A stretch of DNA of 56,634 bases, the filler included, from Sluysia triapertura (Eukaryota), in NCBI GenBank assembly GCA_046118255.1. It is 3 parts of 3 records of this genome, joined end to end, with 100 filler letters (N's around TTAATTAATTAA, not from the genome) between each part and the next. Parts side by side here need not be neighbours in the genome. Positions count along the whole stretch, not along the records: positions 37,412 to 56,634 come from JBJNIA010088686.1; 2 more parts are not named here. The stretch is one strand, 5' to 3'. Below, in pieces: positions 4,401 to 56,190 of the stretch. Under the pieces are notes generated by a model. That model ran no database searches. It had not been told where the DNA came from and worked only from the letters and a program-made list of their open reading frames with translations. A program made the position numbers and the translations under genes. Within the stretch, counting starts at the first letter, position 1, and each line of letters starts with the position of its first letter.

Positions 4401-6406
4401 TTAGATGGTTGAGCATTGTATACCAACATCGAGCACATACAAAATGAGATGCTCAATCGAGATACAAGAACAAAATTTCGTAGCACAAAAGGTTGAATGT
4501 TTGGAGCCGGGCCAAGAGAAAGATTCGTCGCCAGTATGGAACATCAAGAGACTTGTTCCTGCCTTATATGCATGAATTCCTTTTCAGAAACAATGTTATG
4601 TTTAGCAGTTTTTCGGCCTTTGTTAAGTGACTGTTATCCGCAGTGACACTTAAGCAGCCCATACTGCTTTTGTAAAGAGACAAATGACAGTGTTTAAGTG
4701 TTTTTTCAGTATATTGTCAATATATAGTTAGTGTTTGTGCTCCTATTTAGTTTTAGTAATGTGTGAAATTTGGGACCTTAAAGTGCTCTTTTAAACTTCC
4801 GTGGCCTTCAATAAATTACTTATTTTTAACTAAACTGCTAATAGTTCAAATTTATTGAAAATTAAAACATATAACCAAAATGAATTAACTAATATTCTTA
4901 CAAAAATTAATATATTAAAATTGTAAAACAATTAATCTTATAATAATGTGAATGTAACGTTTTAAAGTAAATGTTTATGAATTCGAAAAAATACTCATTA
5001 TTCAATTTGTTTACATTTTTTGAATGTGATTTAGTTTATGCTATTAAAAGCCACAGAAAAATCTTAAATCGTTGTTGAGTTACAATAAAAGCGATGATTT
5101 TAAATTTCGTAACAGTTTGTTTCCGAAAAGCTGAGAAAGCTTATTGGAATTGGCAAGAAGAACCAATAAATCATGTCAAAGAATATTTATTTTCTTGAGT
5201 AAATGATAGATATTTGTCAAGACATTACAATAAGAAATATAATTTTGGACAACATAATTACCCTAAACAAATGTGTTTATTTGACGTAACTGTTTTTAAA
5301 AAATTCATTTTGTTCGGATGTTAATTCTTAATAAACATTTTACTTTAAAATTTTATAATATATATTGAAAGTACATAAATATATATACAGTAACTGTATT
5401 TAAATTTAGATTATAGATCCTTATTTAAAAATAAAAGATGATTTGTTGAGAGAAGATGAAAATATGAGAGGAATGGAAGGTAATTTTATTTGCATTAAAT
5501 TTTAAGTCAGATAAGTGTAAAATAAATTATATTTCTTAAAATAAACATTTATACAATATTTGTTTATTAATATTAGAATTGAACAAGAAATACAAAATTC
5601 ATAGCATAATATATTACAAATTACATGTGCAGAAAAACATAAAAGCGACAAAAAATAATCGAGTTCGATAACGCTCTCTTGCTCAATTATTATCTGGGTC
5701 AATGTTACTGTTATACCAGTATTTGCTCGCGCTGAACGATGATCAATTTAATTAAACATCAAGATATTTACATTTACAAAATCCGTATGTTTATTATGTA
5801 TAAGTTTCTTTTACCTTACCTATTTGTAAGCGATAAAGTACACTTAAAATCTTTTCGTAATATTGCATTATCTTAATATGATAGTGATAAATGCAGTTTA
5901 AAATCAATTATTACAATTTAGGCCTCAAAATCCAAATTGATTTTATATTATAATCTAATTTAAAATACTCCTATTACGAAATCTAATTACATATGTTATA
6001 GTGAACTTTTGATTTTACTTGTGATTTAATTACGTAAAAATAGTGATTTTTGATTATTACTAAATTCATTTTGGTGATTTTTATGGTGATTTATCTATTT
6101 ATGGTATACATAATTTTTTGCATATAATATACATTCCCACCACTGCGTTATTTATTAGTCTTAAATAAATTGTGCTAAAGATATTACAATTCTGCGCAAT
6201 TCAAATTTGAAAGCTGGAGTTTTTATATCAGTCAACTCACGCGTTAAAATGTATAAATTAATTTTATTAAATTTTTATATTTACAAAATCTATTGAATAC
6301 TTATGTTTCAAATACCAATTTATTTATTACATTTAAATGAAGTTGAATAACGATGAAACGTTATTATTATTATCATCATCTAGATTATTATTATTATTAT
6401 TATTAC

Positions 6407-7097: not shown

Positions 7098-10000
7098 CAG
7101 TGATACTAGTAGTTATAATAGTAGTAGTGGTGCTTTTATATACAAAATTATTTTTGCTTTTAAGTCATTTATTTGCTATACGTTAATTAAGCAAATAGTA
7201 TAAAAAGAGCAATATTTAGTTAAAAGATTGAGATTGCAAAAGACGCGAATACAATTTGATCTACATCAATTTCATGTTCGTTAAAACTTTTTTAATTTTA
7301 ATTCGTAAGTTTTATTCATGTAGGATTATTTCCTTACTTGATAGTAATATATAAAATACACGTTAAAATTTTATTTATTTTGACTAGCTTGAGACGCTAG
7401 TAATAGAATCAGATTAAACTCTTAATTTGATTTATTAGATTTAAGTCTCACAAAATAAAATTATATATATGTTTTAGTGTTGTTACTATTTGAGTTCGAC
7501 TAATCTCTTTGTAATTCGTAATTGTTTTATCATTTATTAATACACTTTTAAAAACGTTTAATATTGTCAATTAATGGTAGTATTAAAAAAAGTGCCAAAC
7601 ATTATTTAAAAGAATATTCTTGATAATAAATAATTGATAATAAAAGAAAATTAAAGATTTATTGTTATAAGGAACTAAGGAAGTTCGATATTAAATACAA
7701 CTGTTTAGATCCTCGAATTTATAGTTAAGTAAATCTTATAGGTACATCTTTCGCAAGGATGTAAATCGTATACTACAGGAAAACCCATATCATAACTAAT
7801 ATTTTGCAAAAATTAAGTTAATAATTGTAATAATCTTGCAAAACAAGAATTACCGAATTATTATTCTTATTAATAGAATTGTTGTAAAAGCACTTACTTA
7901 ACTATACACTATTCCGAAATAAAAGATAAAACGGCAAGATTCAAAAAACAGGATTTTTAAAATTAAAGTTTTTTCTAATTTTTATTTTTTTAAAAAATTT
8001 TTGGATATTTACTTATTAGGTATGGATAACTAAAATTAAGAATTCGAAAAAAATATTGTAAATAAATTACTAATAATGTTGGCAGAAGAATTATGGTTGA
8101 TGCTATTAAGATCAAATGTTTTTCTGGCTAATATCGAATCTTTATCTTAAAACTTCATCATTAATATTTTTGTTTTTCTTTAACTGATCTACTTTTCTCT
8201 TTTTTTTCCAACTAAAGTTAATGTTCTTTATCGTCTTTTTGATATGGTAGGTTTTATATTTTTGTTTATAATTTTATAAACTTATTTAAAGTGATTTAGC
8301 GTTATCTCAACGAATGATATTTGAGCAGGTTGTAAAGCCTTCATTTTAATTATTATTATCATTATTTTTACAATTATTACTTTCATTTAAATACGAATTA
8401 TTGTATAATCAACCAAAAATAATATTGATTTAAAGTGAAAATCAATTTGTCCATTTGGCATTTCAGTAAAATCATTAATTTTAGCATTCAATGTATTTAG
8501 GAATATACGATTATCATTAAAATAATTTAATATAAATAAGATAATTTATAATAGTGCTTGTATCATTTCCTCCTATTAGCTTGTTGAAAGAAATATAACA
8601 ATTTTAAAAGAAGAATTGCGTCAAATAACAAATGAAGAATTTCAAGCTTTATTTAAACATCTAGAAAACGCTGATTTTTATAAACAATTATCATACGGTT
8701 TTACCATAAATTCTGCTTTACTATTAATAATAAACAAAGAAATAAAAGAAAATCAATCCACAGAATCATCATCGGAAGAAAGTCAAACAGAAATTCAAAG
8801 AAAATTAAAAGAAGTTACAATATTTGATGACCTGATTGAAATTGTTGGACCGATTTGCACAGAACAGGCAAGGGATGAATATCCAGAAAGTTATCGAGCA
8901 ACGCTCAATAAAAAATTTGAAGATGATTATTTTTATTATAGTGAAGACAAAGAACAATGTGAAAATGATATAAATATATTCTTTCCTGATTTTGAAATTC
9001 CTCTTATAAAACGTCGCAAAACTGATAACCGATTCATTCAAAGAACTGTGGCTATCTTACGTCCATCAGCTCATCAAGATTACAACGACGAAATATTACA
9101 AGATATTGAAAACAATGGTTTTACAATAGTTTTTATGAAAGAGATAACATTTACCGAAGATTTGTGCAACAAATTGTACGATAATACAGTAACTGATTGT
9201 TATTTTGAAGATTTGAAATTGGAAATGACTGAAGGTGCATCATTAGTATTAGGACTAGAAAGAAAGGTTTTTCTTATTAAAATTTAATCTCCTGTTTTCA
9301 CATGTGTCTGATCGCCTAATACTAATATTAAAATAAAATTCAACTTATAAAATATATTTAATCTAATAAAATGTCTTAATTGTAACATCATGTTATTTTA
9401 TATCCATTCTATTATTTATAAATTTTCTATGAAAACACAAACATACATAATATAATAAATGTTTCAAATTTTTATTCGATGTGCAAATGTTTTGATTTTG
9501 CTGTGGGTTTCTTAACTTTTAACTTGCAGCAAAATAAATTTTGGCATGGTTCGGTTACAGTATACGAATTATGACGTGAAGTGGGCGTTAATTCGTAAAA
9601 TATAATCTCGAACATGTTTTAATTGCTAATCGACTATATGGTTTAATTCAGTAATAAATTACGCTTATCCTACAATGTATTTATTTTTAATTGCTAGAAA
9701 GTTAAAAGGTCTTAATAGATTTATCTTATTCCTCAGAAATTCAACTAGTAACGTTTTTTTAATACAAACTCTCTTCATTACAGCGCTTTAACACGTTACA
9801 GCTTCGATATTTGGAAAACTTGATTATAAATTCTACAAAAACCGAATAATAAATCACAAACGTTGATGTAATTTAAATTTTTATTAACAAATAATGATTA
9901 TTTAATTATTTACAAATTGTTAATGATAAAGCCACAAAGAGTGAAAGAGAAATAAAAATACAATAATGTAAAATTAAAACATTGTTGAGGTCTTGAATTT

Positions 10001-13000: not shown

Positions 13001-16000
13001 TAGTTTTTATGTTGTTATTGCTAGGTTTTTCTCTTATTTTCCTAACAATTATGATTTTAAATACGGGTTCGTCTGCGGTATAAGATTTATTACGTGAAGT
13101 AGACGTATCCACAGAAAAGAATAACTACACAAGAATTTCTTTAACCTTGCTAATCAAAACTCTTGAATTATAAATTACAAAGGTCCTTAATATGTTAACA
13201 ATTAATGTGCCACAATCAGGTCGTAATCTAACAATTTAAATTTAACTTTTAATCAAATACGTTTATCACTATTTTCAAAATTACAAAATCTAATTGCTCT
13301 ATCAATTTTAATTCGTAAACTAATTCTATGTCTATAAACAATTTTTACAATTAACTTTCTTGAAAATTCCTTCTTAAAATTTACAAAAATTAAACATTAC
13401 CTCTTATTAAACAAAGGATTAAATAACAAACTACAATTTATTAATAAAGTAAAGGTACAAATTATAATGAATTACAATTTATTAATAAAGTCAAATTATA
13501 ATGATAATAATAATAAATTAAACCAAAAAAGAAAAATTACACTTTTTCTAATTGTAATAAAAGATTTTAGTTCAAATTTAACCCAGGTTTAATACTTGGG
13601 TGAAAAATTGAATGATTTTGAATAAGAATTTAAGGCTAAAAGTATTAAAGCCTAACTTAATAATAATTATCTTACTGAATTTTGGTACAATTAAATGTTG
13701 ATAATTTTGTCCAAATCTTCTTTTATGTTTCTCAAATAATAATTCGTCCAAGTTGATCAAATCAAATTAATTTCCAAAAGAATTAATCCCGAGCAAATCT
13801 ATGCGACAAATACAACCAGAAATATCGAATTAAATTTCCAAGTATCACGATACCTTTAAAAGAATTCTGACAACTTGTGTAATTCTATCCCTATGTTATG
13901 GTATTTATACTTCTTGATGATGCTGCTTGAGTACCGTTCTTTTATTTGAATTTAATGAATTATTTTTTACTTTTTTATGTTTACTTTATCAATAAAAATT
14001 GTTTTTTGAATACCAAAATCCAATAAAATAGTTATAAAATAATAATTTTATAGTTATTTAATGTTCACAATCGCAAAATAAAATAACTTTTCAAAATAAT
14101 AAAAATTTTTTAAGTTAGAGATTTTTATTATTTACAAATATTAAAAGACGTTTACTATTTACAAATATTTTTTATTATTTACAAATATTAAATGATTTTT
14201 ATTATTTACAAATATTTTGTTAATAACTCTTTACTGTATATTTGTGAATTATCAGCATTTATCTTCCCACGTGTTGTGACAAAATGAGCGTTACGCTCTA
14301 TAAATAAAAATTATCATAAAATATTATTTATCAAAAAACTGTTTTATCATCATTTTATTTCAATTTTCAAATTATTTCAAAATTTATTACTGAATTATTG
14401 TTTAAATATTATAATCTATTATTATTTTGTTAATAATTTGGAATTGGCTTGCCTTGACGAATGCTTTAATTGTTGATAAAACAAATATTGTATCATTCGT
14501 TAATTGGTTAATTTTAGTCATTTAAAAATAATGAACAATTAATAAGATATTTCGTCCTAAAATTTTCATTTTTCTATAAGTTAACTGCTAAATTTGGTAT
14601 ATCGTTTTAAATTAATTTTTTTAATTCTTATGTGAAATTTATTTTTCAGATATTAATTAATATTTAAACTACGATAATGTTATTTCTTTAATGTACCGAA
14701 ATATATTTATTGAAAAAATTAAATTAAAAAGATTTGTATAATTATTTTTCCGTTTATTTTAGAATGCTATCCGTAGATGGAAAACATTATTAGGTAACAA
14801 AAATTTAGCATTTGTTCAAACTTATCAACCGAATTGTCTACGTGCTAAATACACAAAAAGTGGCGTCTATGTGAATTTAATACATGGTTCCAGTAATTTT
14901 GAAAGATCTCATATTGAATTTAATCTTTTCTATCCGGTTCAACAAGCCGTGGTCGGTGTCAAGCCTGAAATATTTGAATCAAAGGTTGAAATTTTAGAAT
15001 TGATACAAGATTTTGGTTTTAAAATATCTACTTCCAAAGAAGTTACGTTAACTAAAGAAGATGTTAAAGTACTTTATGGAAAACATGAACGTAAACCATT
15101 TTATGAAAATTTGGTGAAATCAATGACAAAAGGTCCTTCTTTATTCATAATAATATCCAAGGAAAATGTAATAGAAGAAGTTCGTCAACTAATTGGAGAC
15201 AAAGATCCAGAAATTGCTGCAGAGCAAGATCCTGAAAGGTTTAATTAAATAAATTTTACATAATTTCTAGCTGCAAGGTAACGAATTTTATACAAAACTA
15301 CACAATAATATAAAAGCTATTTATTATTAGTTGTGTTTATTGTTGAAATTTAATTGCAAAACTTAGACAAATATTAATATTACTTAGAATATATTTAAAG
15401 CTTATTTAATGTATGTCTTTTCTAAATAATGCAGGAATAATTTGCTGAACGATTGCATTGATTCAAAGAATTACTGTTATACCTCTATAATTAATTATTT
15501 AGACAAAAAAATATATAAGCATTCTTTTTTCGATATTTGGTTTTTACAGCTCCATTATTGGGCCTCATTCATTTATTAAACTTGAGAATTCGTAGCTTTG
15601 CAATGATAAAAGAAAGTTATATCAAAGCGTGAATTGCATGAAACTGTGTCATGCCGGATATTTCCTTTATAAAAACAACTAAATGTGATTTTGATTTTTA
15701 TTCTATTCTTAAAATCCTTATAATTATATAGTTTGAGAAGCATGTACGGAACGAATTTATTAGAAAATGGCATTTATGGCAGTTCAAATATTGAAGAAGC
15801 TCGAGAAGTGATTAAATTATTATTTGGAAATATTGAGTTTGATGATACAGGATCCGTTAAAGGTTATTATGAATTAATTATTTTAAATTTGTTGTAACAA
15901 TGGAGGCATTTGTTTATTATGTACGATAATTTAATATTTGTTGAAAATTTCACAATTGAAGTTTACATATCTATGTCTTAAAAATGTTTCTAAACAGAAG

Positions 16001-23329: not shown

Positions 23330-24600
23330 ACCGGCCATCACATGTTGTGTCCCAGAAGTGTGATTCTAGTCTGAAAGAATTGACATTTCTTGGGTTTGAT
23401 TACCAAATTATTGTATACCAGTTTCTTTAGCATGGTATCCCGATGGATTTGGTGTTTATGGACATCCTTGTAAGATTTGATCGATATGCCGTTAAAAGTT
23501 TGAGGGAATTCCATAGACTGAACGACATTCGGATATACTCGATGAGACTGAAAGGGATAATCACGGCCGTCTTTGATATATCAGCGGTATGTATCAGTAT
23601 TTGATGATAGGCCTTTTCGAGATCTATTGAGGAAAAGACACTCCATCCAGTAAATCGGTGTAGAATGTCAGTTATAGGAGGCATCGGATATGCGTCGTGA
23701 ATAGTGACTTTGTTCAACATTCTGTAGTCATCGCATATGCGAATAGTGCTATCTTTTTTTGACGATTTGTAGAGGTGCGGCCTAGGGTGAGGAAGATCGC
23801 CGCACAATTCCTTGTTTTTTCATGTCAAGAAATTCGAGCTCTGCTTGGGAACGGACATTTTGCGCTAGTTCCCTTTGTCGCTGTCTACAAGGTGGAGTGG
23901 GCAATGTATTGATGAAAGGTGTAAAGTGTAATTGTTGCCGATATAAATCTGGGTAACACCTGCTCCACCTAAGAAAGGATATTTGTTTCATTAATTTGGT
24001 TTTGGTCTATTGTCCGGAGATTTTTTTGTAACGTCTTTGTGTGGCAGTCAACGGAGAACTTAAAATGATTGAGAAAGTCTGCTCCTAGTATTGATTGTTG
24101 GACTGCCGTTATTAGAAAAGTCCACTCGAGTATTTCTTTGAACGGATATATCTGAAAGTTGAGCTTCTGGGAACTGTAGCAAGCCATGCCGTTCCGTTGG
24201 CTGCTGTCAAATAAAAGCGTGTTTTGGTAGCATTATTTACTATTTTTTGGGGTATGACCGACACGGCGGATCCGGTGTCAACGAGAAACTCAAGGGAAGT
24301 ATGCTGGAAGTTGAGGAATCTGAGCGGTACCGAAAATATACTGTTGATCGCCATATTGTCCGGTCGGGTCGCTACGACTAGTGGCGAATTTAGTTTTTGT
24401 CGCTGCCTTAAAAGAATTAAATTGGTTGCAGCCATCCATACATCGTTTTGAGATGTGCGTGATACATGCACACATTTTTTATTCGCAGAGAATTCAACTT
24501 GTTAGGATATCTGCACCTTCTGTTGGTACTTGTTGTGGTAGTAGCAGATACCGTTAAATCTCCGGGAATTGCTAGTTGATTTCCTTGACAACGATGAGTT
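23330..24600 (-). mobile_element. Degenerate Ty3/Gypsy gag-pol fragment (Zn knuckle, protease, RT)
   Basis: GICYYHNKY gag knuckle (~24550); protease FLVDTGSAVSVIP, LTAANGT, ILGADFLNHF; RT GIVRRSSSP, IRICDDYRMLNKVTIHDAYPMP, FSSIDLEKAYHQI, KTAVIIPF; later LVIKPKKCQFFQTRITLLGH. Frameshifted, with the YxDD segment deleted. Confidence 0.9.
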
Positions 24601-24729: not shown

Positions 24730-25596
24730 TTAGAATATATTACAAATTACATTGATCATATAAAGGAAGTGAACGAACAAACATTTATTTCTAAACTTAA
24801 TACTTAAAATTTTAATATATTCATGTTTATTTCTACATAAACTTCTTAAATTCCCCCATGATTCACTATCTAAAGAAAATTTAATACAATCATTATCATT
24901 ATCTAAAAACACAATGAACATTACTTTATTAGATTTTACTGTACGATTATTACTTGCAGCTTGCGAGACCATAGACTGGATGCTTTCCTACAATTCTAGG
25001 ATTTGTGTATTGGTCATTCCATGTAAGTACTTACATTTGGCTCCATTCTTTAAACAGATTCCTATTTCATCCGAAGAAAAGGTACAATAAGCGACGTTAC
25101 CAATCAAAAAACTTGTTTTGATTTTAACATTCTTGTGGAAGTTATGATAAGAAAAGATATCAGCTTCGTGCTCTTCTTCAAAAGCGTATGATTTATATTT
25201 ATTATCAATGTCACTGAATCGCTGAATACCTTTCACAATTTTCTTTTCTTTATTTCTATTATCTTGATCATAGTTAAGATTCTTCTGATGATTAATCATG
25301 AGATCGCGGTATATTTCATAAAATTCATCAAAATTTATCTGTTTATAAGCTTTAAAAAACACATGATTATACGGTGATCTTACAATATGTATTGTATTCA
25401 TTGAATGATATATCCGACAGCTATTGTAGCAAATTTTGTACTTGTCATTATTAACATCGTGGTTTATTTTGTCGAAATAAACAAAATGATTAGTAACACC
25501 TTTATAATGTTTTTGGATTAGATATTCATTGTTGTTTGAAACATTTTGTTGATGATTAACGACAGTTTGATGAGTATCGAGGTTATTTTTATTCAT
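24730..25596 (-). pseudogene. Intronless ORF with a CCCH-like finger and RRM-like segments (202-aa ORF plus a frameshifted 80-aa continuation)
   Basis: CTFSSDEIGICLKNGAKCKYLH is C-x9-C-x6-C-x3-H. IVKGI and KSYAF resemble RNP2/RNP1 motifs. ORF 24730-24972 appears to continue after a stop/frameshift. Confidence 0.35.
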
Positions 25597-25774
25597 GATA
25601 TCCTTTTTAATTTGGTAATCATGGTTTTCATTTGAATTATGTGATTTACTTTCTTTTTCATCTTTTCGTCACCTTCTTTTATAAATCATTTTATTTCATT
25701 ATTGTAATTCATGATACCTTTAATTTTTAAATTTTATCTGACATTAAAACGTATTCGTTAAATCCATCTAATAT

Positions 25775-39060: not shown

Positions 39061-40590
39061 GAAAGAGTCCCTACTATCTAATATGGAGGGTCTTTATATA
39101 TATGTCTTTAAATGTTATTTAATTGTACTTCTTACAGTCGATTCAACTTCTTTATACTTCTCTACTTAATTAAACTTTAACTAAAAATCAAAAACAAAAA
39201 TATTCAATACTTTACGTATTCTATGAAGTTTTTATTACTAAACTTTACAAGGGTAACAATAATAAATTTACAGAAGAAGATTTAATACAAACGCAAATAT
39301 TCAACAATATAATTATAAATAATAAAATTTAATTTATCAATTTTTAGGATTTCTCCTAAATAAATTATTCAATAGAAATTTAATATGATTTTAACCCAGG
39401 TGAACACTTGGGCGTGGAAAGATAATATGAATTTAAGTCTATTTTAATACAGTAAATTTCTGTACAAATCTTATCATAAATAGCTTACGGTTATTTTGTA
39501 ATTTAATATGCTGCTTCCAATTTTCCAACGACAATCCAATTTGCAGTTAACGAATTATTCGAGTAACGATTCCAAATAGTAAACGATGATGTCTTCGAAT
39601 ACCAATTCCAATTAACAAACAATTATCCTTCGAATAACAATTCCAATTCCAATTAGCAAACAATAACTTCTTTCTTCAATTAAATACCAATATCGAATAA
39701 TACGGCAAGTATTCCAAATGCGAAACTTCTTCAACAAAAGATTTTAAAATCTAATTCTAATTGTGTTATGAGATTTACTACAAAACCATAAGCTATTTAT
39801 ATGTGCTCTAATCTTTTTGCTACGTGTAAGTAAATGTAAGAATAATATGTTTTTTAATAATTAATTAAAAGATTAAAAGATAAAAATCGAATTAAAATGT
39901 AGATAATTATTATTTTAGACAGTAATAATCTAATTATTTCAATTATTCATTAAAAAATAATCTATTTTGTTTCGACTTTAAATTTACTGATAACGGTAAT
40001 TAAAAATAATCTAATTGTTTCAATTATTCTCGAATATTATGTTAAAAAGATAATTCAAATAATTATTTTCGACTTTGGATTTATTTTTGTGTACTTTTAT
40101 ACATTATATAATTAATTAAAAGGTTATTATTTATTATAAATTTTACTGCATAATATCTACAGTAAAAATTCGTTATTTTAATTAATTTTTATAATCTGAA
40201 GTTAAAGATACATATGTTCCGATGTATAAGTATTAATTGTCAGTACATAATTTGTGTTCAGTATGTCAGTGCATTAACAATCTGTATATAATATAATTTG
40301 TGTCTAAAAATAATTTGTAAAAATTAATAATCGATAATTTGTAACTAAAAATAAATTGTAAAAATTTTGAAAATAATAACGGTGTTATTATTGCTAATAT
40401 TATTTTTGTTATTTAGTATTATTTATCTTTTATTTAAAATCATTATTAATATTATATTTCTTTAAATTAAATAAAAATATTATTTCCTAAATGTAGGTCA
40501 AGGTGACCATTTTTCTATGATAAATACGCCTAAAAATTTTACAAGACACACAAAAATTTCTAAAAAACTTTTACAAAATTCTACTTTATA

Positions 40591-41950
40591 TTGGAGTTCT
40601 TTTTACGTGATGAGTATCCAAATCAATTTATTAAACAATATGGTCAAATTTATCATATCTATCAAGAGAGAAGATATATTTATACAAAAGCATATGAATG
40701 TGCAGTATCTAGGAAGAGATCTATTAGATGGTATGGACATAATATTCATACTTCACTAATTAAGCAACCAACAATAGAAGAGTATCTTGAAGTCACACCA
40801 AAAAATGCATGCCAAACTCGCGAAATACAAATTGATACAAGAATAAGGCTCAAAGCGAAACCAGGAGTTATTATACAAGAAGAAATATTCGTAGTAGGAA
40901 GTTTAGCTTGCGATGGTGCTTGAGAATATGGAGAACCTTGGCACAAAGGGAATAAGATTCAACAAGTATTAGTTATTGATACTTGTATTATTGAAATTAA
41001 AAACGCTGAAATAGCTGTTGATCCAGATACAAAGACAATGTTAGAAAAGACTTTTTTTAATTAGAATTAAAATCATGTTTTGATGAGAAATATACAATTG
41101 CTTATGATGTTGAAAATCGTGAATATAGCTTAGTATATTGAAAAACAGTTAATTTTGATACAATTAAACGTTAAATATTTTCATCTACTCATGAATAATG
41201 ATATTATCAATAATGTAAAAAATTTAAAATATAAGAAAGAAACCTTAGTAGAAACAACTACTCCCATTGTATTAATTGCTAATAGAACTGATGATGCATT
41301 TCGATTAATAAGAGTAAGTAAAATTCAAAAATGTGGTCAGTTAGCTTATAATACTAATTATAAAGTAAAACAATCTTATTTTAATCTATTAAATAAAGGT
41401 GTTAATTTTATAACTTACTTTAATAAATCAGACTTTCTTTATCATCATTAGTTAAGACAAGTAGAAGATCTTTAAAGAGAAATGATCATATATGACTGTA
41501 AATTAAATCGTGAAATATTGCGTACAAAAATGGCATTAATTGTTACTAATCCTAGCATGGCTACTCCAGTTATTCCGTTAGGAAAGGGAGTATTTAGTAG
41601 AATAATGTGACAGTTATTTATGTGGAACCTGTTACAAAGTTACTATTACCAGATATATTGAATGAATCAAAAATTAAATCCTCACCATTATTTTCTCCAA
41701 CATATAAATTGTTAGAAACAATGTCGCTTGTAGCTCCATCATTGACACAATACTACTATCAAGAAACCTAGAAATTACAACCTTATAAAATAATATACAT
41801 TTTGATCGAATTCAGGATTTAATGAAAAGTGGTCTATGTAATAAAAATCTATGGATGATTCTAAAAAACATTTATTATTCCCACAAACTCGTAATATATT
41901 TTTAACTGAAATAATAGAAACCTCTATAGGAGAAATTGGTGATGCTTCAT
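40591..41950 (+). pseudogene. Chuvirus-like (gB-related) envelope glycoprotein relic
   Basis: ECAVSRKRSIRWYGHNIHTSL..EEYLEVTPKNAC..VVGSLACDGA*; AFRLIRVSKIQKCGQLAYNTNY; YDCKLNREILRTKMALIVTNP..PLGKGVFSRI; EPVTKLL; MDDSKKHLLFPQTR. These blocks follow the order recalled for chuviral G proteins. Many stops and deletions. Confidence 0.7.
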
Positions 41951-42615
41951 CAAAGAGCATCAACAATAGCAAAAATTTTTATAGAAGAAATTATTTTCAG
42001 ATATGGGCCACCTAAAAATTAATTACTGATCAAGGTACTAATTTTACAAGTGAAATAATTAATAGGACAACAACATCTGTTTAGTTGAAAGATTTAATCG
42101 TACACTAATACAAATGCTATCTACATATAATGATGATCACCAAAACGATTGGGATGAATTTATTGCACCCTGTTTATTTGTATACCGTAACGTAGTACAT
42201 GAAGCTACTAAAGAATCACCATTTTATTTAATATATCTTCGAGAAATAGGATTATCGGTGGATTTATCCTTCATACCTGATTCATCAAAATATTTAGAAG
42301 ACAATTATTTACAGATAATGAAAGAAAGAATAAAAGAAGTATGGACAAGAGCTAAATTGAATGTAAAGTTTTACTAGGAATCTTATAAACAATATTACGA
42401 TAGTAAGATTAATCCAGCAAAATGTAAAAAGGGTGATTTATTATTATTCTATACCCTATTAAATAAAAAAGATTTTAGTAATAAATTCTGCAAACCTTAT
42501 GATGGTGCATATATTGTTGAAGATACCGCCGGACAGCATCTCAAAATAAAATTATATAAATAGAAAAAATTTGAATCTATAATAGCCCATAAAAATTGGT
42601 GTAAAACCTTTCAAA
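41951..42615 (+). mobile_element. Ty3/Gypsy integrase core and GPY/F region (degenerate)
   Basis: ASTIAKIFIEEIIFRYGPP..LITDQGTNFTSE..VERFNRTLIQML..NDWDEFI..YRNVVHEATKESPFYLIY..KQYYD..GDLLL..KFCKPYDGAYIV..IIAHKNWCKTF. Confidence 0.9.
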
Positions 42616-42699
42616 GAAATAATCCTCACTCTTTAAGAAATAATTCTACCAATAATTCTGAAGCAATACATCAAAATGAAGTAAGTAATAATACCTTAA

Positions 42700-43210
42700 A
42701 AGCACCTAATGTATCTAAATTAACGACACTCTTAATAATGTATATATGTATTATGATAACTTGGGCAAGAGATGGCACTGACATTGAAGATTGGATGTTT
42801 CATTCTAAAATATTTTACATAAAAATTAAATCTAAATTTGTTATTAATAATAGTTATCCTTATAAAGTAATATGCCACAATGAATATGAAATGCATAATG
42901 CAACATATAATGAAGATGAAAACTTATTTTCATGCATAAATTTAAATCCCGACACCAATTATATAGTCTATAAAGGTAGGAGATAAAATTTAAAAACTAA
43001 CCAACAAATGTATCCTGTTTTGCAAGTGCCTACAAGCATGATTTTACAACTGAAGTTATAGAATTAAACATAATGATGTTAATTATAGCAATAGGGGTGT
43101 TGATAATGTTAGAGTTTATTTTGTTTTATAAGTATAGTTATAAAAAGAGATTCGAAAGAGATATTAAGGGTATACGTTTAATAGCATCAATCAGGAGTTA
43201 CTGTGGTTAG
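42700..43210 (+). pseudogene. Type I membrane protein relic with an FN3-like motif, in frame with the integrase
   Basis: Hydrophobic LTTLLIMYICIMITWA (signal-like); ectodomain with INLNPDTNYIV (FN3 LxPxTxYxV motif); after a stop and frameshift a TM helix IMMLIIAIGVLIMLEFILFY followed by KYSYKKR. 42738 is in the same frame as 42114. Confidence 0.5.
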
Positions 43211-44145: not shown

Positions 44146-45255
44146 TTTTTAGAATTGATGAAAAGCGTCCAAAAAGCAAGTAAAATGTACATTGCACCTT
44201 GAATAGCTACAATTCAAACTGTTCAAAATATAGTTCTATGGGCAATGGCAATAGAAACTTGCTGTAGTATTGTTTTAAAGAAAGAATTTCAAAAGTATGA
44301 AACATTACTAGAAAATGTGCCATTTTTATAGTGGATGCCTAGATTACAATACTTAACGATCTGAATGGAGCAATAATTACTCTGTATAATAACCGGGTTT
44401 GGGAATTAAAATTACTTAATTTATTAAATGTGTGAAATTGAATACTTTATAAATCAACTGCTGAAGGTAGCATTTTTGTATAATTTATAAGAAATTTATA
44501 AGAAATTTAGAAAATTGTGATTTATTAGCTATTATGTTATTATGTTATTAGCTATTATAACATTGAGTTTTTGCTACTAATTTGAATTAAAGAATACAAC
44601 TTCTGTTGGGATTGAATAGATATCATTACTAAACTAATAGAATTTGAGATAATTTATATTTAATTTAGTGTGTATTGAAAATATTAAGATTTCGTTTAAG
44701 TAGATTAAAATGACACGCAACATTTAATGGATTTTCTCTCAGTTACTATATTTTCATTATGCCGATTTTCTTTGTTATTCTTTTTATTTACAGATTATAT
44801 TATTAATTATGATTATGATTATGATTATTTGATTATTAATTTTATTATTTACAGATTAATTATTTTATTCACACAAAAGTAAAGTTTAAAAGTATAAAAT
44901 AAACAAAAGTAAATCTACCTGTGGTGGCCCAGCCCACACCTACCTACATATCACATAAACCTCAACACAAAAATAACACCATAACAAATTTTACACATAT
45001 CATTTACAACATTGCACTACTTATCATTATAAAATCACAAATGCCTAGTAAAATTTCTTTTATTAACATTTTTATCAAAATATTAAACTCAATGTTCATT
45101 GTCATTTTTATTATCATTATGACGCACTATCATTTTTCTAGTATCTCCCGATTTTTCATTTTTTTTCTTTTTTGCGATTTAGCGTTGTTAGGTTCTTTTA
45201 CCCTAAATATTGAATCCGTCCGTAATGATGTATCGTTATACTTAAATTAGAAATC

Positions 45256-46050
45256 ATGGTTTTCATGCATATTTCTATTTCTGAAGAAAACCCATCGATT
45301 TCTGCTTTGGACCATTTATTAATTAGAAATGAAAAAGTATTATTGAAAGGCATTGAAATTTCTTTTAATCGGTCATGTTTAGTTCAATGTTCAAATCATG
45401 GAATTATATTTAGACAGACTTTCGAAATTGTAGGTTCAAATTTTTCGTATTTTAATAAACTACATCAGACATTGTCGGTGGCTTATGATAATGGTTCTTA
45501 TATTATATATGTTGCTGACGTTGAAAATATAATTAGAATTATTCAAGTTAATCTTACGTCAGGTATTTTTACAAACAGTTGTTTTCAAAAATCTTTTGTT
45601 AACATTACCGAACTTTTTGCTGAAATAAAGTCTTCCGTTTATGAAGAACATGTTAAAAATATAGAAGGTACCTATGAAATGAAATTATTTTCATATTATA
45701 ATACCAAAAGAAATGTATCATTTCAAATCGAAGAAGAATGAAGAATGGATCAGATAATTACTCATGAATATATTGCCAGTATTTCATATTCATCTAATAT
45801 TTTAGATTTTTTTGCGTTTTCAAATTGTTACTTACATTTTTTAACAACCCCAATTCTTGGAAAAGTGAAATCATATGGTAAATTAGAAATAGGTACACTC
45901 AGTGATAGTTTAGAACATGTACACTTTTATCAAAATCATTTAAAATCTAATGAATATGTATTTATTTTATCCCAAATTGATTCAGAAATTGTTACAATGA
46001 TTGATGGTAGTCTGCCTAGTTTGGATTGCTTTGATTATATACTCGTTTGA
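45256..46050 (+). pseudogene. Orphan intronless ORF split by one in-frame stop
   Basis: ORFs 45256-45741 and 45745-46050 share a frame; ~260 codons in very AT-rich DNA; no family recognised. Confidence 0.4.
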
Positions 46051-46520
46051 AACAAATGTTTATATCATTTACAAAATTAGAAATTTGGGTGAAAATGAAT
46101 TTTTTGATATTGTTAAACACTGATTCCATTTGACTATAAGAGATATTAATTAATTTGATGATAATAATAATTACAATGAGGATGACACTATATGTAGTGA
46201 TGATGATGATAATGATGACGATTAAGTATGTAGCGATGATGATGATGACCAAGATGACGTCAATAGATATGAGATATTTGTATGTAGTATAAATACTCAC
46301 ACATTAATAAAAATAATCATAATAACAAATTTTAAAAAATTTTGAAATTACTTCAAGTAGACTCAAACCAGAAAATTTGAAATAATTTGAAATAATAGAA
46401 TATAATTCTAATGAAAATATGTCTCTTATTGCAAAGACTGCATCATTTCCAGTCCACGACATGAACTAACTAGTTAATTATAAGGGACATTTAAATGAAG
46501 TTGCATTAAGTTGTTTTAAA

Positions 46521-47306
46521 ATGATAGTGAAAAATAAAAAGCGTTGCATCACGCATTCGGAGTTTAATCAGTACCAACATTCTGCAAAATTGATGAAATC
46601 AAATTCTAAAGATGGAGATTTATGTAAACGATCAGAATATTTAGTGATGAAATTCCGAAATGTATTAAATAAACATGTTTATGACGTGCGATATACTCTG
46701 TTTATTGCTAATCCAATATATTCAGTTTATCCTTCACCACCTAATGAAACTGATATGCATATATTCGATGTAAATGTTAGACTTCCACACGTTGTTCGGT
46801 ATTACCAAACTTGGACTGAATTTCAAACACTTCTCGAGCAATTAGAATATCATATTGGGTATTCTATTTATGATTATATTGTAAACTATTTGAAACAAAA
46901 TAATACTTATGAAATTAAAGAGGTGTTTGTAATAGAAATGATTTTTAGCATTCTATCAACTGTATCTTATTTACTCAATAATGATATACGTACTCATAAT
47001 GATGTTCATGAGTACGATTATATTGTAAACTATTTGAAACAAAATAGTACTTATGAAATTAAAGAAGTGTTTGTAATAGAAATAACTTTTAGCATTTTAT
47101 CAGCTATACATTATTTATTCAATAATGATATGAATGCTCATAATGACGTTAAGGTTAAAAAAAATTTATGTTTAAATAACAATAATTCATTAATAATTAA
47201 ATCCAAACATTATACATTTTACGTTAATAAAAACACATCCACAATACGTTGTTTGATCTGCAATTTCGGGTTTACTGCTCCACTTCGACTAAAGTTTAAA
47301 TGTTAG
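46521..47306 (+). CDS. Orphan 261-aa ORF with a 48-aa internal tandem duplication
   Basis: Longest open ORF in the window; repeats 46869-47012 and 47013-47150 (YDYIVNYLKQN..HNDV); C-terminal CLIC. Confidence 0.4.
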   Translation: MIVKNKKRCITHSEFNQYQHSAKLMKSNSKDGDLCKRSEYLVMKFRNVLNKHVYDVRYTLFIANPIYSVYPSPPNETDMHIFDVNVRLPHVVRYYQTWTEFQTLLEQLEYHIGYSIYDYIVNYLKQNNTYEIKEVFVIEMIFSILSTVSYLLNNDIRTHNDVHEYDYIVNYLKQNSTYEIKEVFVIEITFSILSAIHYLFNNDMNAHNDVKVKKNLCLNNNNSLIIKSKHYTFYVNKNTSTIRCLICNFGFTAPLRLKFKC

Positions 47307-53155: not shown

Positions 53156-54476
53156 ACATCAATTAAAAATAGTACAACTATATAAAATGAAATTATAGTA
53201 TATGTAGTACATAACACAATTGTTATATATTGGTCTGATTTGTTCCATATGGATCTGAAAATATAATAATTAATAGTAATATTTTAATAAAAAATTAATA
53301 ATAATAATAATGCATGCACTTTGTATAATTTTCTGCATTCTAAAACAAATAAAGATCAATTACTCAAATAAATAAAAGAATACAAATGAAAAAATAATAT
53401 TTTAATTATTAAATAAATAAATAAGAAAATCGCATAAAATTTATTTTACCTTTGTAAACATTGAATTGGTATATAAAGATCAGCTAAAAAACTTTACACC
53501 TCCAAGTTGGGATCTATTACTCGTGTTGAGAATTTTACAAATTCAGCAAAAAAAATTTGGTTGCGACTTGGAACCGTACGTTATAATAATTTGGTAAATA
53601 AATATTCAACGAATATTTGGTTACAGTAATTTTACGATTTGGAACGGTTCATTTTCAATATCATCTTGGCCAATTATTTCAGAGTAATACACCAAGTTCA
53701 AACTAAAATAAGTTTTGCGACAGAATATTCACCAATTTAGCTCAATTCGTTAACTATATAGGGAACTTGATAATATATTGTCAATTCGATTTTACCTAAA
53801 ATTTCGTAAGTTATTAATATTAAGTTTTTTCTTATTTTTCTTATATTTTTTCTTATAATTTGTTCCTTAATTTATTCGTTGATTAGTACATCTCTAATTT
53901 TCAGTCAGAGACAATTTTGTAAATTAAAATTGTATTAAGGATTAGAACGTAACTGATTAATCATAACATTATATATAATTATAATTTGTTTTTCAGCTAT
54001 TCTATACTTTTGTCATATAATATTATTCAACAATTACATCAATATATGCATCTGTATTATTTTGTAGCTAATCCATTTATGTTATTATTTGGTGATAAAG
54101 GTATCATTTGGCATACGTGAACGGCATTATTAGGTTTCATCTGGTACATGATAAGCAATAATATCTTGTTATACAAATCATAAAGTTACAAGGAGAAGTT
54201 ATAATATTTAGGAAGATCTTCAAGGTATAATTTGGCATTTGTAATATTATTTATTTATTATTTACGTTTATATTATCATATTTCAGCTATTTTATATCAT
54301 TTTTTCTTATATATATTTTAAATTCTATACACTACTGTACAATCCTAACAATATGATATTATTATTGAGTTTTATTAGGATTTTTAATGATGAACTATTG
54401 CAAAGCACGTTAACATAGATAACGTAACAATTAGTTATTTTTATTAATTTTTATAATTTAAAATTAAATTTAAATA

Positions 54477-54860
54477 TGTTCCGATGTTTAAATATTAATA
54501 AAGTATTGTGGAATTTTATTTAAAGTAGAATAATAAAATAAAGAGAAAGTTTTAACGTGAGTCCACCAACGTATTGGGCTTACCAGTTAGGGCCAGACGT
54601 TGGATTTGTGAATAAAAGGATTCTTAAGTAAGGTTAAAAGAAATGCTTAAAAGGTTTTGTTAATGATGCTAGTTTATATCTTGACAGTGAAATATTAAAA
54701 ATTTTCTGGAGGTAAATTTTAATACTAATGAATTTTATGAAATTTTATTTAAATAATCAAAATTAATAATAATAATGTTCTTAGGATTATTTTACGTAGA
54801 TTCTTTGAAATGGAATCTCAAAAAAGATTTTAAGAAATTGGATTTAAATTCCAATTGTTG
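54477..54860 (+). repeat. LTR-like repeat family P, copy C
   Basis: Possible start TGTTCCGATG (54477); core 54552-54607; TGGAGGTAA near 54707; hairpins 54798-54818 and 54836-54856. Confidence 0.55.
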
Positions 54861-56092
54861 AAAACGTGTTTTTTTATGGATTTTATATTTGCAATTATGT
54901 AAATTGAATAAAGAGACTCGATTTTAATAATTTATTATAAAACAATAATAAAATGCACATAATAGTAATATTAATAACAATTAATTTGCGTATTTTAACT
55001 CAACAGAAGTTAAAATAAAAATCAAATGAATTTACAAATGAATTTATCGTTAGATCTATTATAAGATCCAAAAAATTAATTCACAAAGAGAGTTTAAGTA
55101 TGAATTTACGCTGAAATTGTTAATATCTTGACTTATCACAATTAAACTAACGTAACGTTAAATAAAATTTATTTTGAAGCGTGATAGCAAACTGATTTCG
55201 ATTCGTAAACCACGAATTCCAATATTAAAAGAAGACTTATAATAACTAGTTGTATTGAAGACCTTTAAAAGTTGACATTGTGTCAACAAAAACTGTGTAT
55301 CAAAATTGAATTATCAATTTGTGTAATAAAAATTGTGGCTATTTATAATTGTTTTAGTCTGACCTTGGCCAGATTAAAACAAATTATTTTAATTATTAAA
55401 TTAAAACAATTTTCATTAATTTTAAAATTTGAAAAACAATAATTTCATCAAAAACAACAATTTCATTAAAATTAATTTTAGAATTTAAAAATCGCTTACA
55501 TTTTTTCCAATTCAAAATTTGAAAAATCCGAAATTAAAAAATCATTATTAAAGTAATCTAAGATTAATAATCTATAATTAAAAAATCCATAATTAACAAT
55601 ATTAATATATCAATTGTTCATTACATTACAACAATCAATGTATAAATCAAAGTGTCAAAGTATAGACCAAATCGCAAATCATTTGCATAATCACAAATCA
55701 GTTACAATCACAAATCATTACTTAACTTGACTTGCAACGTATGGTTGGTGCACAACGTATTATTATTTATTGTCAATATGTAAATTCTGAAATTCTAAAA
55801 ATAAACCTTAACACGCACAAGAATTATATTTTTATCGATTATGTCAATATGTAATTCTACATACATAAATATGTCATTTCTAAAAATAAATATTGATTAT
55901 TGTGTGTAATAATAATATTTTGTAATTCTAATATGTAATTCTAAAAATAATTTATTTCGACGATATTATTATTATTTATTTACTATTATTATTTAGCATT
56001 TATTTATTATTTGAAATCATTATTAATATTATTTTCAATTCTTTAAAACTTGCATTTCTTTAAATTAAACAAAAAATATTTCTAAAAATATC

Positions 56093-56190
56093 GGTCAAGG
56101 TGACCAATTTTTACTATAAATGCATATACAAAATTCACAACTCACACACAAAATTTTTTTACAAATCTCCTGCAAAACTTCTCCTAGTTG
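56093..56190 (+). repeat. Dispersed repeat beginning GGTCAAGGTGACC (other copy 40496-40590)
   Basis: About 95 bp of similarity between the two loci. Confidence 0.6.

Follow-up and report, generated by a model that had tools for sequence, protein, structure and literature searches.

A decayed Ty3/Gypsy relic with a chuvirus-like glycoprotein in Sluysia triapertura, and a predicted second membrane protein in its relatives

The stretch of Sluysia triapertura DNA analysed here (56,634 nucleotides, filler included; hereafter the window) carries what is very probably a dead, Burro-like Ty3/Gypsy element of gag-env-pol type, from which an internal deletion has likely removed ~3.1 kb. LTRs, gag and native gene order in this species are read across from the relative P0024, which is only ~50% identical.

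Glycoprotein and integrase at the locus

In a three-frame reading, 39900-43200 holds broken glycoprotein-like sequence at ~40600-41941 and integrase motifs up to 42602 (Table 1), surrounded by window DNA that is AT-rich and eukaryotic (GC 20-35%). The glycoprotein (G) part, ~1.35 kb long, had been taken for chuviral-G-like in a preliminary description made from the sequence alone, and both the profile and the translated searches agree with that reading. Pfam PF24664 (Monjiviricetes_fusion, cut-off 27 bits) was recovered in the G frame at E 1.8e-8 and 33.3 bits (frame 40564-42042, stops read as X), and P0024 residues 415-918 were aligned over 40609-41988 by tblastn against the window with a combined E of 1e-105. 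By blastp the match of the window G pieces to P0024 stops at residue 901, and identity is 48% over 487 columns. The window G lacks the signal peptide, the first ~20 residues and the transmembrane end; its reading frame changes 5 times (near 41065, 41185, 41610, 41760 and 41845), ~34 codons are missing near 41610, and the matching frames contain 6 stops. Two other stretches tried as further G copies were rejected, 24988-25668 (-) being an ORF with a CCCH finger (Pfam, below cut-off) and 26750-27193 (+) a UFL1 fragment (Pfam, E 8e-13).

The integrase part matches 23 Gypsy pol proteins at 26-37% identity (best E 4.5e-20), and P0024 residues 1949-2183 at 51% over 235 columns, with a ~23-codon gap near 42063-42081, 2 frame changes and 2 stops. 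The abrupt same-strand join of G to mid-integrase, previously placed at ~41950, is confirmed and now set at 41941/41942. Relative to P0024, ~1,045 codons (~3.1 kb) are absent at this point, spanning the G transmembrane end, protease, RT, RNase H, integrase zinc finger and the first part of the core. The relic itself extends beyond 42615 to ~43200, as judged by the tblastn match to 43031, the hydrophobic segments and a high depth to 43179.

Table 1. Features of the relic, its left flank and its best relative (window positions, except for P0024, given in residues)
Feature	Location	Strand	Basis
Separate AT-rich repeat adjoining the left end of the relic	40138..40585	.	86% to 54424-54499, 69% to 55907-56185
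Decayed chuvirus/gB-like class III G ectodomain	40600..41941	+	Pfam PF24664, tblastn, 48% to P0024; corresponds to P0024 residues ~415-901
Junction	41941..41942	+	Colinearity with P0024: G stops at ~901, integrase starts again at ~1945-1949
Gypsy integrase, second half of core and C-terminal module	41942..42602	+	Matches to Gypsy pols, P0024, tree
Signal-like hydrophobic segment in the integrase frame, predicted start of second membrane protein	42711..42770	+	Hydropathy 1.87 over 17 residues (42711-42761)
Short ectodomain with C-x-x-L-x-P-x-T-x-Y motif	42771..43034	+	Within P0024 tblastn match to 43031; alignment motif column
Transmembrane-like segment and short basic tail, different frame; relic end	43076..43207	+	Hydropathy 2.89 (43076-43126); depth drops past 43179
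P0024 CCHC knuckle	31
P0024 hydrophobic segment	369-385
P0024 G	~392-1024
P0024 protease	1083
P0024 RT	1394
P0024 RNase H	1615
P0024 integrase zinc finger	1833
P0024 integrase core	1908
P0024 hydrophobic segments after integrase	2259-2275 and 2545

The window copy is without gag, protease, RT, RNase H, G anchor or recognisable LTRs, and the matching frames of the whole copy contain 9 stops plus several frame changes; judged from its sequence, it is dead and does nothing by itself. No direct repeat, LTR pair or target-site duplication bracketing the relic was found in the window, the copy itself being truncated. No relative gave a tblastn match upstream of 40600, and gag is absent from the stretch to the left of the relic (40162..40585), where the AT-rich repeat forms a very deep bin in the one public run (X1) used for depth. 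Depth in this run, summed over contigs and not to be read as a copy number, was 21,000-92,000 in every bin of 40606-43179, against ~30 in the long contigs of the flanks, which shows that all three parts, G, integrase and the downstream membrane-protein piece, are repetitive. Other copies differ at the 41941/41942 join, since loose ends before 41942 are seen in 6 contigs of that run.

Elsewhere in the window, 23347-24501 (-) is a separate decayed Gypsy protease/RT relic; it was considered as the missing middle of our element and rejected, as it lies on the other strand and resembles G-less pols more (48% identity with P0002). Two exons with nucleoside diphosphate kinase domains (8580-9287 and 14763-15248, +) are likely parts of one host gene, and a tRNA-like sequence, together with a partial copy that has diverged from it (127-197, 170-232, 33634-33696), is possibly a SINE. 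Two short frames at 36639-37289 (+) have no Pfam match and carry motifs that we take to be those of a Tc1/mariner transposase. An open frame of 278 codons at 46470-47306 (+) has no Pfam match above cut-off and contains a 144-nt tandem duplication (46869-47150, 88%), and two further frames at 45229-46050 are unexplained.

Relatives and the origin of the join

A word-indexed search found no relatives of the decayed G, yet an exhaustive HMMER search with the window G frame gave 32 matches, the best being P0024 (E 1.7e-91, 49%). All 2,627 residues of it lie in one open frame, which encodes in turn a CCHC knuckle, a signal, G with its transmembrane segment, the enzymes from protease through RT and RNase H to integrase, and then a signal-like segment, an ectodomain and a transmembrane segment. 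P0024 is HBK71150.1, a hypothetical protein whose record assigns it to a Flavobacteriaceae MAG (contig of 9,084 bases); its DNA is likely that of an animal retroelement which ended up in a bacterial bin as contamination, and its misplacement is a point for database curators. A metagenome scan found no locus matching it.

PF24664 was present in all 18 relatives scanned among the 32 G matches, with a protease downstream of G in 9 of the 18. A search among long proteins only, which covered single frames of 1,444-4,598 residues and in which an env as a separate post-pol frame could not appear, gave 11 matches, and G lies upstream of PR-RT-RH-IN in 10/10 single-frame proteins that have both G and integrase. 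The Gypsy-type PR-RT-RH-IN order is found in P0024, P0025, P0056 and P0060-P0066, of which the window retains the integrase only. A CCHC precedes G in P0024, P0029, P0032, P0043, P0046, P0059, P0060, P0062 and P0064-P0066 and is absent from the window; capsid matches were all below cut-off (Retrotrans_gag in P0043, Ty3_capsid in P0059). In P0029, P0056, P0060, P0061 and P0063 there are 2-4 or more aspartic-protease-like repeats, some of them after the integrase, and ankyrin repeats and C2H2 fingers also occur. By tblastn, P0024 residues 415-~901 fall on 40609-41940 and 1949-2357 on 41951-43031, so that window and relative are colinear, and the gag-env-pol order suspected in the preliminary description is supported.

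The fold of the envelope is in line with its sequence. An AlphaFold2 model of the P0024 G ectodomain, built from 24 sequences (pLDDT 75, pTM 0.53), matched chu-like virus glycoproteins in a fold search (E 4e-34, 18-21% identity) and post-fusion herpes gB (E 6.5e-14, TM ~0.4); gB was found by fold search only, a PDB sequence search with the G alignment having returned proteases and no fusogens. As modelled, P0024 G belongs to the class III fusogens, in their chuvirus-like branch; a comparison with such fusogens had been proposed as a check. Since G matches chu-like virus glycoproteins both in Pfam and by fold, one might think of a fresh endogenised chuvirus gene inserted in a Gypsy element, but the viral glycoproteins are only 18-21% identical to P0024 G, against 48% between a retroelement G and the window G, and no other viral gene was found near the relic, which makes a recent capture extremely improbable.

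It is worth considering whether one element or two lie at the locus. P0024 ranks first for both the window G and the window integrase. The 10 integrase matches that rank directly behind it comprise 9 G-carrying polyproteins plus a cluster-mate of such a protein, and all those G-carrying polyproteins outrank 23/23 G-less Gypsy pols. Trees of G and of integrase, which had been proposed as a check, agree: window and P0024 are sisters with support 100/99 among 34 integrases, and with SH-aLRT 100 in a quick G tree of 26 rows, viral G being compared by identity only. Support for a clade uniting the G-carrying integrases is 93/96, which does not reach the starred level.

The preliminary description had kept recombination between two neighbouring elements as its alternative. 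Two unrelated relics side by side, the G of a BEL/Pao (Anakin-like) or other-family element next to an ordinary Gypsy integrase, would fit the abruptness of the join and the divergence of other contigs there, and Gypsy fragments have often been seen flanking chuviral glycoproteins with no capture claimed (in the accessible part of PMC10084718). Nevertheless, P0024 is the best relative of either half and the sister of the window copy in both trees, which speaks against two unrelated elements. Nor is G linked only to BEL/Pao elements, a linkage that would have told against a Gypsy host: the relatives have Gypsy pols, and none of the 27 relatives scanned showed a BEL/Pao-specific domain at E <= 0.01. 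Largely refuted by P0024 and nine other single-frame G-integrase polyproteins, the arrangement of unrelated neighbours is very unlikely, and a Ty3/Gypsy lineage with a chuvirus/gB-like fusogen, as first proposed, is what the relatives' G and Gypsy pol, the trees and the fold matches support.

Within one family, the join may still have arisen by recombination or as a head-to-tail junction of two copies, which would leave the biology the same and change only the origin of the scar. The family looks abundant, so that ectopic recombination is plausible, and the relic is not bracketed by LTRs or a target-site duplication. Yet the halves keep the native order of P0024 and other small gaps occur on both sides of the join, for which one deletion is simpler; we therefore regard an exchange between copies as improbable. 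An internal deletion of ~1,045 codons is the most likely origin of the join because both halves share P0024 as best relative, are colinear with it and pair with it in both trees. The direct contact of G and integrase is a deletion scar of this copy and not the native layout.

Published elements of this layout

A Gypsy element with a chuvirus/gB-like env ahead of pol has already been published, and our locus adds a decayed member. The suggestion of a new invertebrate retrovirus-like group is thus not borne out, the layout being described for Burro (PMC6431247) and for gB-type errantiviruses (PMC13524379). In the planarian Burro elements (Arkhipova and Yushenova 2019), env lies in frame between gag and pol with matches to mononegavirus fusion glycoproteins, and decayed Burro fragments were noted in another planarian (PMC6431247). 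Our relatives resemble these giant Burro/GYPSM1 Gypsy elements in having one polyprotein with an in-frame env between gag and PR-RT-RH-IN (PMC6431247), ankyrin repeats (P0056, P0059) and sub-threshold Bcl-2 matches (P0026, P0059). However, P0024 is compact, with 2,627 aa against 4,873-5,140 for Burro (PMC6431247), and has no Bcl-2, ankyrin, MATH or BIR match. Strict Burro elements exceed 25 kb and carry MATH, BIR, Bcl-2 and ankyrin domains, the extras being shown partly by the farther relatives, whereas the P0024 contig has 9,084 bases. Since neither the giant size nor the extras were seen in P0024, we speak of a Burro-like and not of a Burro element. A membrane protein after the integrase is, moreover, not mentioned in the accessible part of the Burro account (PMC6431247).

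Ty3/gypsy errantiviruses of GAG-ENV-POL order with a gB-type glycoprotein resembling Chuviridae G were described in Platyhelminthes, Nematoda and Bryozoa by Chary and Hayashi (eLife, PMC13524379), including six Schmidtea elements, Smed_errantivirus_1-6, of the Platyhelminthes C1a group with 1-215 copies. These share with our element the Ty3/gypsy pol, the gB-type env placed before pol and the multicopy state, and the motif order of their G domains I-II equals that of the window G, compared by eye only (PMC13524379 supplement 2). They differ in that the window copy is dead and deleted, and the main text on them (PMC13524379) does not discuss a post-integrase membrane protein. The bryozoan rows and 15 nematode C1 env rows of the same source lack the window motifs by eye. 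With the Schmidtea motifs, and the ankyrin and weak Bcl-2 matches that the relatives have in common with Burro, the element would point to a flatworm as host, probably a planarian. The non-canonical nematode ERVs (Sacco et al. 2022, as cited in PMC13524379) are metaviruses that likewise have an RNA-virus glycoprotein before pol; by their env motifs, compared by eye, they are another lineage. Anakin, a BEL/Pao element with a chuvirus G, has the same fusogen family but a Pao pol and mosquito hosts (PMC7642597), while the pol here is Gypsy-type: Pao-type gag/pol domains were not found in the 27 relatives (E <= 0.01), and in both searches and tree the window integrase falls among Gypsy pols.

A predicted second membrane protein

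Downstream of the integrase and in frame with it, 9 of the 10 complete G-carrying polyproteins have a signal-like hydrophobic segment and 8/10 a second, transmembrane-like one. Neither occurs in 23 G-less Gypsy pols, whose tails are short (<=206 residues) and in some cases truncated. The window retains both segments (42711-43207), the one at 42711-42761 sitting where P0024 residues 2259-2275 do. Between them, the motif listed in Table 1, which we take to be FN3-like, is common to several relatives in the alignment. The window ectodomain alone is not significant (phmmer E 0.09-0.13), and a profile of the relatives' post-integrase domains against the window frames gave E 0.64 at rank 2 of 795, the sequences being too diverged. 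The P0024 tail had weak Atlas matches to FN3 proteins (recognition 1905; scores 0.91-0.92). In P0064, a post-integrase signal is followed by an Ig-like domain (residues 2651-2750; Ig_3 E 1.5e-5, below cut-off), and the P0065 ectodomain looks unrelated to the others. From these weak matches the post-integrase ectodomain looks FN3- or Ig-like, and it seems exchangeable, P0064 having a putative Ig-like domain where other relatives appear FN3-like.

We found no published description of a post-integrase protein, and the words 'fibronectin', 'immunoglobulin' and 'polyprotein' do not occur in the main text of PMC13524379; Sacco 2022, Grohme 2018 with its extended data, Repbase, or the figures and deposited ORFs of PMC13524379 may mention one. 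The predicted membrane protein is the one feature of these elements that is possibly undescribed.

Most likely the intact element would make one polyprotein, in which two internal signals would guide the chain across the ER membrane. The first would put G in the ER lumen, and the G transmembrane segment would bring the chain back to the cytosol, where protease, RT, RNase H and integrase would lie, before the second signal opened one more luminal domain, anchored separately. Cleavage by signal peptidase and by the element's retropepsin would then yield Gag and the Pol enzymes as well as two surface proteins, a trimeric class III fusogen and a second, small one, and particles would bud with G and could move between cells.

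Herpes gB works with the partners gD and gH-gL, and class III herpesvirus fusogens in general need partner proteins. It is conceivable, if rather unlikely, that the gag-env-pol elements are two-glycoprotein retroviruses in which the fast-changing FN3/Ig-like protein would be the fusogen's partner in attachment or triggering, or else a receptor decoy. Such a role is something that we infer, whereas the two-segment architecture itself is observed in the relatives (9/10 and 8/10, against 0/23). For the question of how gB-type errantiviruses choose their target cells, a co-translated, variable surface protein would be a concrete candidate.
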